Assembly (NCBI RefSeq): GCF_003018115.1
Contig: NZ_CP027457.1
Direction: 5' to 3' (one strand)
Origin: Escherichia coli
GTDB taxonomy: Bacteria; Pseudomonadota; Gammaproteobacteria; Enterobacterales; Enterobacteriaceae
Length of the DNA stretch: 64,000 bases
This document shows, one piece after another, positions 25,201 to 31,200 of this stretch. Position 1 is the first letter of the stretch, and each line of letters opens with the position of its first letter. The position numbers are program-made.

Positions 25201-28200
25201 TTTTATCAGGCGGATGTGCTGACTCAGGGCAAACCTGTGCTGCTTAACGTCTGGGCGACCTGGTGTCCGACCTGCCGTGCGGAACATCAATATCTGAATC
25301 AGCTTTCTGCGCAGGGCATCCGCGTGGTCGGCATGAACTATAAAGACGATCGCCAGAAGGCAATCAGCTGGCTGAAAGAGCTGGGCAATCCTTACGCGCT
25401 AAGCCTGTTTGATGGCGACGGCATGTTAGGGCTGGATCTCGGTGTCTATGGCGCGCCAGAAACGTTTCTTATTGACGGCAACGGTATCATTCGCTATCGC
25501 CATGCGGGCGATCTGAATCCTCGCGTCTGGGAAGAAGAGATCAAGCCGCTGTGGGAGAAATACAGTAAGGAGGCCGCACAATGAGGTTTTTATTGGGCGT
25601 GCTGATGCTGATGATCTCCGGCTCAGCGCTGGCGACCATCGATGTGTTGCAGTTTAAAGATGAAGCACAGGAACAACAGTTCCGTCAGCTCACTGAAGAA
25701 CTGCGTTGCCCGAAATGCCAGAACAACAGCATTGCCGATTCCAACTCGATGATTGCCACCGACCTGCGTCAGAAAGTGTATGAACTGATGCAGGAAGGCA
25801 AAAGTAAGAAAGAGATTGTCTATTATATGGTGGCGCGTTACGGCAACTTCGTCACTTACGATCCGCCGTTAACGCCGCTGACCGTGCTGCTGTGGGTGCT
25901 TCCCGTAGTGGCTATTGGCATTGGCGGTTGGGTCATATACGCCCGCTCGCGGCGTCGGGTACGCGTGGTGCCGGAAGCGTTTCCTGAACAAAGCGTGCCG
26001 GAAGGTAAGCGTGCCGGATATGTTGTTTATCTGCCGGGTATTGTGGTGGCGTTAATTGTGGCTGGCGTCAGCTACTACCAGACTGGCAATTATCAGCAGG
26101 TGAAAATCTGGCAGCAGGCCACGGCACAGGCTCCGGCGTTGCTGGACAGGGCGCTGGATCCGAAAGCCGATCCGCTCAACGAAGAAGAGATGTCGCGCCT
26201 TGCGCTGGGGATGCGTACTCAACTGCAAAAAAATCCGGGAGATATAGAAGGTTGGATTATGTTGGGCCGCGTTGGCATGGCGCTGGGGAACGCCAGTATC
26301 GCCACCGATGCATACGCTACTGCGTATCGCCTCGATCCGAAAAACAGCGATGCCGCACTGGGATACGCTGAAGCGTTGACACGTTCATCTGATCCCAACG
26401 ACAACCGCCTCGGCGGCGAACTGCTGCGCCAGTTGGTGAGAAGCGACCACAGCAATATCCGTGTGTTAAGCATGTATGCGTTTAATGCCTTTGAGCAGCA
26501 GCGATTTGGCGAAGCCGTTGCCGCGTGGGAGATGATGTTGAAACTCTTACCTGCCAACGATACTCGCCGTGCGGTGATTGAACGTAGTATCGCGCAGGCG
26601 ATGCAACATTTGTCGCTGCAGGAGAGTAAATAAAAAGTGGCCCGATGGTGATTCCATCAGGCCAGACTGATGACAAAGTGCGCTTAGTTTATGCCGGATG
26701 CGGCGTGAACGCCTTATCCGGCCTACACAATCGTGTGAATTCAATAAATTGATCGATCCGCGTAGGCCTGATAAGCGTAGCGCATCAGGCAGTTTTGCGT
26801 TTGTCATAAATCTCAGCCCGATGATAAATCCATCGGGCTATTTTTATTGTGCCCCGCGTTGTTGCAGGAACAGAATGGTGGCCGCCACGCGTGAGCGGAC
26901 ATTGAGTTTGCGCAGCAGATTGCGAATATGTACTTTTACTGTCTGCTCGGAAATATTCAACACCGAGGCAATCTGTTTATTTGACAGCCCCTGTGCCAGC
27001 TCGTGCAGAACATCCAGCTCGCGCTCCGTCAGCACGCTGAAGGGATCTTCTTCCGCGCCAAACATTTCACGTTCATGTAAGTACTGATTGACGCGTTCGC
27101 TAAAGACTTTGCTGCCTTTCGCTCCGGCACGAATCGCTTCCAGCAACACTTCCGGGTCGCTGTCTTTCAACAGATAACCGTCTGCGCCTGCGTCTATCAG
27201 CGCAAAGACATCGCTGGAGGCATCTGATACGGTCAGGATAATAATTTGCGCGGTAACGCCATCCCTGCGCAAGGCATTGAGGGTATCCAGGCCACTCATA
27301 CCTTTCATATTGAGATCCAGCAAGATCACGTCGATATCCAGTCTATTAGCCAGATCGATAGCACTCGCGCCGTCGCCCGCTTCGGCGACCACTTCAAAGC
27401 CAGGATCAAGCTCCAGTAACTGACGAACACCGCGTCGCATAAGTGGATGATCATCCACAATCATCACCTGAAAAGGCGTTGCTTCAGGCATAGTAGTCTC
27501 CTGAGGTTTTATTAGAATCATTATGTTTGAGCGTAGCGTTGGTATCGCTACCAGGCGCGTGAATGTTACCCCATTTTATGTATGGACATGTAGTGAAAAC
27601 TACAACCTTGCCGTTCGCTTTGGCATCATTTTCATTATAAAGACGGAATTTTGCATCAGCTTCTCATCAAGAAAAACAACTAAAAAATCAATCACAATAC
27701 TTGTGCATTTCTTTAAACAGTTTTTAAAAACTGACTCCGGGTATGGAGCTATGGGTATTTTCTGTACCCAATGCTTTTAACAGCAATTAATTTCATAGGA
27801 TGAAAGCTCAATGCATCAATCTGGTTCTGTTTCTCTTTGTCGTTCCGCAATATCTGTTCTGGTGGCTACAGCGTTATATTCACCCATAGCATTGGCATCA
27901 ACAGTTGAGTATGGTGAGACAGTTGATGGTGTTGTCCTGGAAAAAGATATCCAGCTGGTTTATGGGACCGCCAATAATACGAAAATCAATCCTGGCGGAG
28001 AACAGCATATTAAAGAATTTGGTATAAGTAGTAATACTGAAATTAACGGCGGGTATCAGTACATTGAAATGAATGGCACCGCAGAATACTCCGTATTAAA
28101 TGATGGTTATCAAATTGTTCAAATGGGTGGCGCGGCAAACCAGACTACCCTCAATAATGGTGTGCTACAGGTTTATGGCGCAGCGAATGATCCCACGATT

Positions 28201-31200
28201 AAAGGCGGGCGCTTAATTGTTGAAAAAGATGGGATTGCCGTCTTTGCCGCTATCGAAAAGGGAGGATTACTGGAGGTTAAAGACGGGGGATTAGCATTTG
28301 CGGTAGATCAGAAAGCAGGCGGTGCTATTAAAGCAAGCACGCGGGTCATGGAGGTATTCGGAACAAACCGTCTCGGTCAGTTCGAAATCAAGAATGGTAT
28401 TGCTAACAATATGCTGTTGGAAAACGGCGGAAGTTTGCGAGTTGAAGAAAATGACTTCGCTTATAATACTACTGTAGATAGTGGCGGCTTACTGGAGGTT
28501 ATGGATGGCGGGACTGCAACTGGCGTTGATAAAAAAGCAGGCGGAAAATTAATTGTCTCAACGAATGCGCTGGAAGTGAGTGGTACAAACAGTAAAGGCC
28601 AATTTAGTATAAAAGATGGTGTGTCAAAAAATTATGAACTGGATGATGGTTCTGGGCTTATTGTTATGGAGGACACGCAGGCCATTGACACTATCCTCGA
28701 TGAGCATGCCACTATGCAATCGCTGGGAAAGGATACTGGTACGAGAGTGCAGGCAAATGCGGTATATGATCTCGGTCGATCAGATCAGAATGGAAGTATA
28801 ACGTATTCCTCTAAAGCCATCTCTGAAAATATGGTTATCAACAATGGCCGCGCTAATGTCTGGGCTGGCACAATGGTTAACGTTTCAGTCAGAGGGAATG
28901 ATGGCATTCTTGAGGTCATGAAGCCGCAAATAAATTATGCACCCGCTATGTTGGTGGGTAAGGTAGTGGTTTCTGAGGGCGCTTCTTTTAGAACGCATGG
29001 TGCCGTGGATACCAGCAAAGCGGATGTTTCGCTCGAAAATAGCGCATGGACCATCATTGCCGATATCACTACGACGAACCAAAACACCCGCCTTAACTTA
29101 GCCAACCTTGCGATGTCTGGCGCAAATGTGATTATGATGGATGAGCCAGTGACTCGTTCATCTGTGACGGCAAGTGCGGAAAATTTCACTACGTTGACCA
29201 CCAATACCCTGTCGGGAAACGGCAATTTTTATATGCGTACCGATATGGCGAATCATCAGAGCGATCAGCTCAACGTCACCGGTCAGGCAACAGGTGATTT
29301 CAAAATATTCGTGACGGACACCGGTGCCAGCCCGGCAGCAGGAGATAGCCTTACACTGGTAACAACGGGCGGCGGTGATGCTGCATTTACGTTGGGCAAT
29401 GCCGGAGGCGTTGTTGATATCGGTACGTATGAATATACCTTGCTGGATAATGGCAACCATAGCTGGAGTTTGGCAGAGAATCGCGCGCAAATTACCCCTT
29501 CAACCACTGATGTGCTGAATATGGCGGCCGCACAACCGCTGGTATTTGATGCAGAACTGGACACCGTGCGTGAGCGTCTTGGTAGCGTAAAAGGCGTTAG
29601 TTACGATACGGCGATGTGGAGTTCGGCAATTAACACCCGCAACAACGTGACCACTGATGCGGGAGCTGGTTTTGAGCAAACATTGACGGGCCTGACGCTC
29701 GGTATCGATAGCCGTTTCTCCCGTGAAGAAAGCAGTACAATTCGCGGCTTGTTCTTTGGTTACTCTCATTCTGATATTGGTTTTGATCGCGGCGGAAAAG
29801 GTAATATCGATAGCTATACCCTGGGGGCTTATGCCGGTTGGGAGCATCAGAACGGTGCCTATGTTGATGGAGTGCTGAAAGTTGACCGTTTTGCCAACAC
29901 CATCCATGGCAAGATGAGTAATGGGGCAACAGCGTTTGGCGATTACAGTAGTAACGGCGCAGGTGCTCATGTCGAGAGCGGGTTCCGTTGGGTTGACGGA
30001 TTGTGGAGTGTTAGACCCTATCTCGCCTTTACCGGCTTTACCACAGATGGTCAGGACTACACGTTATCAAACGGCATGCGCGCGGATGTGGGAAATACCC
30101 GGATATTACGCGCTGAAGCGGGAACGGCGGTAAGCTATCACATGGACCTGCAAAACGGTACGACGCTGGAACCCTGGCTGAAAGCCGCCGTGCGTCAGGA
30201 ATACGCCGATTCTAACCAGGTGAAAGTTAATGACGATGGCAAATTTAATAATGATGTGGCTGGAACCCGTGGCGTTTATCAGGCTGGGATAAGGTCATCG
30301 TTTACCCCGACGTTAAGCGGTCATTTGTCAGTCAGCTATGGCAATGGCGCAGGGGTAGAATCGCCGTGGAATACCCAGGCTGGTGTGGTCTGGACGTTCT
30401 GATAACAGACAATAAACAGGCCGTGATGTGTCGCGGTCTGTTTATCGAATTAAATGCAGATATAAAAAAACCAACCTTTACGGTTGGTTTTTTTTGGGAT
30501 TTTTGGTCGCACGAGAGTAGTTTAATTGAACGTGTAACTTAATGATTTAAAAGAATGAGTCTGATTCAACTTTTAAGCCGTATAACCAAACGTATAGCTA
30601 AATTTATTTGCTGAAAAAATGTACAATTTAGAGTCAGATTTTCCCAGATGTTTAATTTATAAAACGAAGCTGGCGGCTGTTCTCTGATATGTGGATCCCC
30701 ATATCTGGAACCCTACCGGAATTTTTTTCCGGTTACCCTTTAATCAGGCTGGTGGGCTTTACCTGTTCGGTAGGTATGATCATTATGATCATACCTTTCG
30801 CCCCAATGGGAGGTAAAAGCGCCAACTGGACGGTTAAACCGTCTTTTTGTCACATCGTGTCACTGGTTGTCACTCTCCGTCACGATGTCCGCTCGCCTGG
30901 CTGTAAATCAAACTACGAAATTTTCGTAGTTGTGAGTAAGCCCCAAAATATGGGGATTACTCTTACTACCCAAACTACGGGTAGTTTCCGTAGTTTCATA
31001 GTCGAGTTGCAGATCTGCAACTCCCCCACCAGCCAGCGCAATTTTGCGCTTTGCTTTAAGTTCAGCGAGTTACAGCGCCGACTTCCTCAAATTGAGGTTG
31101 CCGGAAATATCAACCAGTTACGAGGCTCAAAATTGAGCCGCCTTTAAATCAACACGTTACCGCCGTAACCGCTCCGGCTTCTTCCAGTTGTACGTAATTT

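Follow-up and report, generated by a model that had tools for sequence, protein, structure and literature searches.

Several well-described autotransporters resemble the product of yejO. Antigen 43 (Flu/Cah) of Escherichia coli is a protein of type Va architecture with phase-variable regulation and self-association as features of its own; the likeness of YejO to it here is a resemblance of passenger fold. AIDA-I and TibA are glycosylated adhesins, and BrkA, Vag8 and pertactin are proteins of another genus, Bordetella, with complement evasion as a function of theirs. The nearest described system is the YejO of E. coli K-12 itself (b2190, "adhesin-like autotransporter YejO"), encoded between narP and proL. 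The MG1655 annotation (NC_000913.3) lists yejO as a pseudogene in two pieces, with IS5K (1,195 bp) inserted after nucleotide 67 and the target TTAT duplicated, in agreement with published accounts (PMC11005336; PMC11677980). Because IS5K splits the gene within the signal-peptide codons, the K-12 copy is incapable of the pathway of export, barrel insertion and display. The function of YejO has apparently never been studied because K-12 has no working copy, and no functional or experimental study of the protein, including any adhesin or biofilm role, was found in the open literature. Here the yejO gene of another E. coli strain is described from a window of 64,000 nucleotides (contig NZ_CP027457.1).

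The yejO locus and the predicted architecture of its product

The yejO gene of the window is uninterrupted. The initial annotation described an intact frame of 863 codons with no insertion sequence between narP and yejO and described the K-12 gene as disrupted, and all three points are borne out. The frame opens with ATG, the sole stop in its translation is the terminal one, and alignment to the 863-residue K-12 allele reveals no missed frameshift in the window, while the reference is not equally intact. With IS5K removed, the K-12 gene also has 863 codons and is 97.7% identical in nucleotides and 97.1% in amino acids; 21 of the 25 amino acid changes lie in the passenger. The spacer between narP and yejO has the same length in K-12, with 317 of 319 positions identical. 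The window ORF list contains no transposase between ccmH and the yejO stop. The position and length of narP match K-12 b2193 and RefSeq narP, and the gene differs little from that of K-12 (dN 0.004, dS 0.046). The coordinates of the features are collected in Table 1.

Table 1. Features at and around yejO, in window positions, with the evidence for each.
Feature	Position	Strand	Evidence or remark
narP, nitrate/nitrite response regulator, 215 aa	26844..27491	-	ORF; divergent upstream neighbour of yejO
narP-yejO spacer, 319 nt, 36.7% GC, IS-free	27492..27810		aligned to K-12
yejO CDS, 863 aa + stop, intact	27811..30402	+	ORF list, translation, identity to F9792 and RefSeq
predicted Sec signal peptide, aa 1-29, MHQSGSVSLCRSAISVLVATALYSPIALA followed by ST	27811..27897	+	read from sequence
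TTAT, single copy here; duplicated target of K-12 IS5K, in signal-peptide codons	27874..27877	+	K-12 alignment
predicted passenger, aa 30-561, right-handed beta-helix	27898..29493	+	Pfam, TIGR04415, PDB sequence matches, AF2, Foldseek
predicted linker alpha-helix, aa 563-592, expected in barrel pore	29497..29586	+	AF2 model
predicted 12-stranded beta-barrel translocator, aa 600-863, ending ...VVWTF	29608..30399	+	Pfam, TIGR01414, AF2, Foldseek
codon 789, TGG (Trp) here, TGA in widespread pseudogene allele	30175..30177	+	barrel strand 9 (aa 785-797), AF2
terminator-like hairpin, then T-run, 3' of yejO	30464..30494	+	identical in F9792
partial copy of proL 3' end, 16 nt, one base missing; left att repeat of island	30502..30517		F9792 blastn, sequence reading
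proL, tRNA-Pro(GGG)	41344..41420	-	ARAGORN

An integrase-bearing island lies beside the gene. The statement that the locus has no insertion sequence is correct as far as insertion sequences go, and is to be qualified by this phage-satellite-like island of about 10.8 kb, which starts about 100 bp past the yejO stop. The island is inserted in the 3' end of the tRNA-Pro(GGG) gene proL and leaves both the yejO frame and the hairpin behind it intact. In strains that lack the island (K-12, F9792) about 100 bp separate proL from the yejO stop; here proL is displaced by about 10.8 kb. An effect of the island on yejO was considered and rejected, since the insertion begins past the hairpin and the island-free F9792 has identical yejO and upstream sequences. 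A stop-free frame of 496 codons within the island (37736-39226, minus strand) was also considered as cargo; its translation is not protein-like and has no Pfam, PHROG or PADLOC match, and the frame is probably spurious.

The structural elements of type Va autotransporters are present in YejO: a signal peptide, a beta-helix passenger, a pore helix with a 12-stranded barrel, and an aromatic-ended beta-signal. The predicted signal peptide combines a basic residue with a hydrophobic core and an A-L-A cleavage motif, with cleavage between ALA and S, and residues 1-27 are disordered in the AlphaFold2 (AF2) model (pLDDT below 50), as expected of a signal peptide. The mean pLDDT of the model is 87.9. 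Residues 30-561 are modelled as an all-beta solenoid in which most 10-residue blocks have a mean pLDDT above 80. This passenger matches the Pfam families AIDA (E 6.8e-53) and Pertactin (E 7.2e-45) and the repeat model TIGR04415 (65 bits); the AIDA-type repeats are best developed at residues 184-245, and the pertactin-type C-terminal part spans residues 431-555. The barrel matches the Pfam autotransporter beta-domain (PF03797) at residues 602-841 (E 4.5e-45) and TIGR01414 (E 8e-111). It is modelled with twelve long strands, and the protein ends in AGVVWTF, an aromatic-ended beta-signal of outer membrane proteins. In Foldseek comparisons it resembles the barrels of BrkA, EspP and NalP (TM 0.7-0.9), with a TM of 0.90 and an rmsd of about 3 Å to the BrkA beta-domain (3QQ2). 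A sequence search of the PDB gave matches that include Ag43, TibA, Vag8, BrkA and pertactin. Tandem Repeats Finder detected no tandem repeat in the DNA of yejO. A variant with an in-frame deletion of 74 residues (EC21Z-078, 789 aa) was therefore rejected as a change in the copy number of a perfect repeat.

Intact and broken alleles in E. coli

Several E. coli lineages have lost yejO, and the allele of the window represents the usual, unbroken form of the gene. Over all 2,592 nucleotides this allele is identical to yejO of F9792, a complete genome that was sequenced independently and in which the product (WP_001718537.1) carries no pseudogene flag. In RefSeq the exact protein is "autotransporter YejO", present on 383 contigs under the same accession. 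The window protein is 97.0-99.0% identical to 12 other intact alleles and the K-12 allele with its insertion sequence removed. It belongs to the YejO orthologue group (PGAP "autotransporter YejO") by its high full-length identity and by its position between narP and proL/yejM, with proL displaced by the island as described above. The closest relatives outside the group are metagenome proteins with at most 46% identity.

The distribution of alleles was surveyed in 5,426 complete E. coli genomes. The yejO frame is at least 80% covered in 4,281 of them. The K-12 IS5 junction sequence is found in 357 genomes (6.6%), and a nonsense allele, W789*, is common to 1,158 (about 21%), mostly together with a change of the start codon, M1I. 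About 1,140 genomes (21%) have only a remnant of the gene. A full-length yejO with neither the IS5 junction nor W789* is present in about 2,766 genomes (51%), and all 12 alleles sampled from this class are annotated as intact. Other lesions include remnants of about 0.9 kb (LF82, SaT040) and a truncation beside Mu-like prophage genes. An intact gene of 863 codons thus appears to be present in roughly half of the complete E. coli genomes, O157:H7 and BL21 among them.

The observation of an intact yejO is therefore correct but ordinary. The implication of the initial annotation that such an allele is rare does not hold, as about half of the complete genomes appear intact and the exact protein is in RefSeq; in many E. 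coli lineages yejO is already known to be commonly intact and is annotated so. An intact copy matters little alone, and the broken K-12 gene is a familiar oddity of a laboratory strain. The survey serves as a simple map of usable yejO, in which the 51% class holds the candidate intact alleles. This strain, O157:H7 and BL21 are ready sources of intact alleles for work on expression, surface display and adhesion.

Proposed function and alternative explanations

The locus very probably represents an intact chromosomal yejO, orthologous to b2190 and encoding a classical monomeric type Va autotransporter, for which analogy with the family suggests surface display and adhesion. By that analogy YejO, where expressed, would be routed through Sec to the periplasm by its 29-residue signal peptide, and BAM would insert its C-terminal 12-stranded barrel with the WTF end into the outer membrane. 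The linker helix would fill the barrel pore, and the AIDA/Ag43-like beta-helix of about 530 residues would be shown on the cell surface, where it would most likely promote adhesion or aggregation.

The possibility that the frame only looks intact, through an overlooked W789*, an ATT start or an assembly error, has virtually no likelihood and is already refuted by the sequence of the window. It could be raised because the best database match for a 4-kb query, OkiPb01682, which also carries the island, has a yejO flagged "internal stop", an allele found in 21% of genomes. However, codon 1 of the window gene is ATG and codon 789 is TGG, and both the complete identity to F9792 and the 383 contigs with the exact protein stand against an error. 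It is possible, but rather unlikely, that the frame is intact and the gene cryptic, that is, silent under most conditions, heading for decay and with no present phenotype. H-NS is reported to silence other E. coli autotransporter adhesins and could, for example, do so here. The region upstream of yejO is AT-rich (36.7% GC vs 51% for the whole window). The promoter, as yet uncharacterised, presumably lies within the spacer; a scan of the plus strand upstream of yejO found no consensus sigma-70 promoter at its stringency and gave no usable promoter call. The K-12 fragment ranks among the ten annotated genes whose expression is detected least often (106 of 3,325 RNA-seq samples; PMC10392735), but these data are weak evidence on the intact locus because the K-12 copy sits behind IS5. 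Other genomes have lesions of four or more independent kinds (IS5; W789* with M1I; the 0.9-kb remnants; the Mu-adjacent truncation), jointly affecting roughly half of the complete genomes, and the gene has been lost repeatedly across lineages and is therefore dispensable. Sequence evolution argues against a cryptic gene. The dN/dS ratio among intact alleles is 0.18 (66 pairs), which shows that purifying selection acts on them, and in comparisons with the window allele the barrel (0.04-0.15) is more constrained than the passenger (0.10-0.28). Such selection on the protein implies that it must be made somewhere. The W789* alleles have a ratio of 0.66 among themselves, and constraint on them is relaxed relative to the intact ones.

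It is quite improbable that YejO works as an autotransporter with a passenger other than an adhesin, for instance one with enzymatic or toxic activity or one that confers serum resistance (cf. BrkA, Vag8 and the SPATE proteases). Two complement-resistance factors, Vag8 (7AKV) and BrkA (3QQ2), do match YejO in the barrel and the pertactin-type region. However, Pfam and NCBIfam profile searches detected no protease, lipase or esterase domain, the best passenger matches in both sequence and fold are adhesins (Ag43, the AIDA family and TibA), and the AIDA and TIGR04415 strand-loop-strand repeats are typical of AIDA and TibA. The reading of YejO as a displayed adhesin or aggregation factor is preferred. 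A further reading, tentative and unlikely, is that yejO is under conflicting selection, the intact alleles being kept by purifying selection and yet at least four independent knock-outs having occurred. If so, YejO would be an uncharacterised surface adhesin that brings a benefit in certain niches and a cost elsewhere (e.g. as an antigen or phage receptor), and this strain and relatives like O157:H7 would be natural hosts for a function missed in K-12.

Comparison with known autotransporters

Among proteins of known structure, Ag43 (7KOH) is the best match of the YejO passenger (phmmer E 1.9e-37, Foldseek E 4e-22). In contrast to this shared fold, the structural alignment has only 20-25% identity, YejO is shorter (863 residues vs 948 positions in the Ag43 model), and it scores 133.8 bits on the NCBIfam model auto_Ag43 (NF033177), which has a cut-off of 1,200. 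A score of this kind relates YejO to the Ag43/Cah family but places it outside.

YejO shares with AIDA-I and TibA the Pfam AIDA repeats and the TIGR04415 repeat, the latter described as an "O-heptosyltransferase target", and it matches TibA (4Q1Q, E 1.7e-26 in the PDB sequence search) and the AIDA-I transport unit (4MEE). Unlike the genes for these adhesins, yejO is not flanked by a heptosyltransferase gene of the aah or tibC type; no glycosyltransferase ORF adjoins it, its neighbours being narP on one side and proL or the island on the other. YejO also has few repeat units, in contrast to the far longer AIDA-I model (1,287 positions), and it scores 68.8 bits on auto_AIDA-I (NF033176), for which the cut-off is 1,200. 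Because both equivalog scores are far under their cut-offs, the specific functions of Ag43 and AIDA-I are not transferable to YejO.

The Bordetella proteins resemble YejO in having a pertactin-type C-terminal passenger segment followed by a barrel. Vag8 (7AKV) matches residues 459-860 of YejO (E 2.3e-35), and the BrkA barrel is the close structural counterpart described above. The N-terminal passengers of BrkA, Vag8 and pertactin, on the other hand, are unrelated to that of YejO.

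Intact yejO and its K-12 counterpart

The window carries an uninterrupted yejO gene in a region free of insertion sequences, as the initial annotation proposed. The ORF has an ATG start and encodes 863 aa, and its translation contains one stop, which is terminal. The narP-yejO spacer, 319 nt long both here and in K-12 MG1655, is identical at 317 of these positions and hence contains no insertion sequence. The spacer is AT-rich (GC 36.7%), and a simple scan of it found no consensus sigma-70 promoter.

The K-12 copy is indeed disrupted. The NC_000913.3 annotation lists yejO (b2190) as a pseudogene joined from two fragments, and two independent sources describe inactivation by IS5K close to the start codon (PMC11005336; PMC11677980). 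A 67-nt fragment 1 is followed by IS5K (1,195 bp, with insH8) and a 2,525-nt fragment 2. The 4-nt target TTAT flanks the K-12 element twice and is single-copy in the window (27874-27877). Joining the K-12 fragments gives an open frame of 863 codons with 97.7% nucleotide and 97.1% amino acid identity to the window gene (25 substitutions, no indels). The reference allele is not equally intact, and the window ORF contains no overlooked frameshift.

YejO has apparently never been characterized because the model strain lacks it. The K-12 fragment ranks with the ten annotated genes for which expression was seen least often, having been detected in 106 of 3,325 K-12 RNA-seq samples (PMC10392735), a figure that says little about the intact locus because the fragment sits behind IS5. 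No functional study of YejO was found in the searchable literature, and therefore "adhesin" stays an annotation-level inference.

Distribution of intact and broken alleles

Intact yejO is not unusual, and the window allele is common and already catalogued. The exact protein is present on 383 contigs in a 15-billion-protein collection, named "autotransporter YejO," and 16,859 sequences belong to its 90%-identity cluster. In strain F9792 (CP024273) yejO is 100% identical to the window gene and is annotated as intact (WP_001718537.1). The ORF was matched in 5,421 of 5,426 complete E. coli genomes and at least 80% covered in 4,281; because these genomes do not represent the species at random, the allele frequencies are approximate.

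Several lesions account for broken copies. An 80-nt probe spanning the K-12 yejO/IS5 junction, with a full match required, found the junction in 357 genomes, including the K-12 derivatives ER1709 and J53. The insertion site is continuous in 5,019 genomes, in agreement with this count. Of 17 records without IS5 that were sampled among the genomes ranked with full coverage, 12 are annotated as intact (O157:H7 NE1127 and BL21-AI included) and five are flagged "internal stop." All five and OkiPb01682 share a TGG to TGA change at codon 789 (30175-30177), an allele for which RefSeq gives no other label. In five of the six W789* copies sampled (loci L002, L011, L012, L014, L017, and L023) the start codon (27811-27813) is also changed, from ATG to ATT. 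Codon 789 is in barrel strand 9, and the stop therefore removes the final four strands (from 9 on) together with the beta-signal. With a 35-nt probe able to seed only on the TGA version, this single shared pseudogene allele was found in 1,158 of the 5,426 genomes.

Coverage is below 80% in about 1,140 genomes. LF82 and SaT040 have a frameshifted remnant of ~0.9 kb, which fits the reported absence of yejO from ST131 (PMC5654935). In STEC388 the gene is cut off after about 230 nt and adjoins Mu-like prophage genes. EC21Z-078 (L025) has a 222-nt in-frame deletion (74 aa; ~28323-28549 in window coordinates) that removes one AIDA-type repeat unit. The resulting 789-aa protein is annotated as intact, and this form occurs in 3 of 60 systematically sampled genomes. 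Once the IS5 and W789* genomes are subtracted, about 2,766 (51%) remain with full-length alleles that lack these lesions, and all 12 alleles sampled from this class are intact.

The intact alleles evolve like a coding gene kept by purifying selection, and this speaks against a frame that is open yet dead. For 66 pairs of intact alleles dN is 0.010 and dS is 0.057, a ratio of 0.18 (Nei-Gojobori), and the barrel is under stronger constraint than the passenger. The W789* alleles have a ratio of 0.66, from few substitutions. Across the population, recurrent and independent loss of yejO stands beside purifying selection on the copies that are intact.

A putative phage satellite at proL

K-12, F9792, and the majority of the strains sampled have proL (tRNA-Pro GGG) about 100 bp after yejO. 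Alignment with F9792, which lacks the island and is otherwise nearly identical, places a ~10.8-kb insertion in the proL 3' end, beginning about 100 bp downstream of yejO and bordered by an imperfect 16/17-nt direct repeat of the tRNA 3' end. It leaves yejO, its upstream region, and a terminator-like hairpin untouched; the window equals F9792 at every position from 26618 to 30509. Over the ~30.6 kb shared there are 22 differences, 16 of them within 1.7 kb of napA (15363-17034), a cluster that suggests a small recombination patch.

From its gene content the island looks like a PICI-like phage satellite, since no portal or terminase gene was seen in it. Related islands with differing middle parts occupy the proL site in other strains, and integration at proL next to yejO is known in Shigella flexneri 1c (PMC4924310). 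The island also contains a frame of 496 codons without a stop. Its translation is rich in S, C, and R, does not resemble a protein, and includes an internal repeat (CKAMRRS..HGAD, twice); the frame had no match in Pfam, PHROG, or PADLOC. The opposite strand has small ORFs that are ribbon-helix-helix-like by eye, and the long frame is probably spurious, running antisense to a duplicated module.

Features of the yejO-proL region (window coordinates)
Feature	Position	Strand	Remark
narP	26844-27491	minus	upstream of yejO; preceded by ccmH, dsbE, ccmF
yejO	27811-30402	plus	autotransporter
Direct repeats	30502-30517; 41342-41358		island borders
Island	about 30518-41341		
ClpP-like prohead-protease/major-capsid fusion	31696-33585	minus	
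PerC-family activator	34235-34507	minus	
RepA/AAA_25 helicase	34957-36366	minus	
DUF4222 protein	36363-36662	minus	
496-codon frame	37736-39226	minus	
Small ORFs	37932-38120; 38625-38798	plus	opposite 496-codon frame
Small 68-aa ORF	39181-39387	minus	helix-turn-helix regulator gene here in related OkiPb01682 island
Tyrosine integrase	39884-41125	minus	adjoins tRNA
proL, tRNA-Pro(GGG)	41344-41420		

YejO architecture and known autotransporters

YejO is a classical type Va autotransporter by every defining feature that can be tested from sequence. The first 29 aa look like a Sec signal peptide (…SPIALA/ST), and the C-terminal end is WTF. Pfam identifies AIDA repeats (E 6.8e-53), a Pertactin domain (aa 431-555, E 7.2e-45), and an Autotransporter beta-domain (aa 602-841, E 4.5e-45), and NCBIfam identifies TIGR01414 (E 8e-111) and the strand-loop-strand repeat TIGR04415. 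An AlphaFold2 model built with 88 diverse homologues from a search of 1.8 billion representative proteins (mean pLDDT 87.9) has a disordered segment (aa 1-27), a beta-solenoid (aa 30-561), a helix (aa 563-592), and 12 long strands (aa 600-862). By analogy with the family, YejO would be exported by Sec and its barrel inserted by BAM, with the helix spanning the barrel pore and the beta-helical, probably adhesive passenger displayed on the cell surface.

YejO is related to Ag43 and AIDA-I but distinct from both, scoring 134 and 69 bits against their NCBIfam equivalogs, far under the cut-off of 1,200. A PDB sequence search returned Ag43 (7KOH, 1.9e-37), an AIDA-family adhesin, Vag8, TibA, BrkA, and pertactin. 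By Foldseek the passenger matches Ag43 (E 4e-22), and the barrel matches the BrkA beta-domain (TM 0.90, rmsd about 3 A), followed by the barrels of EspP, Hbp, AIDA-I, and NalP.
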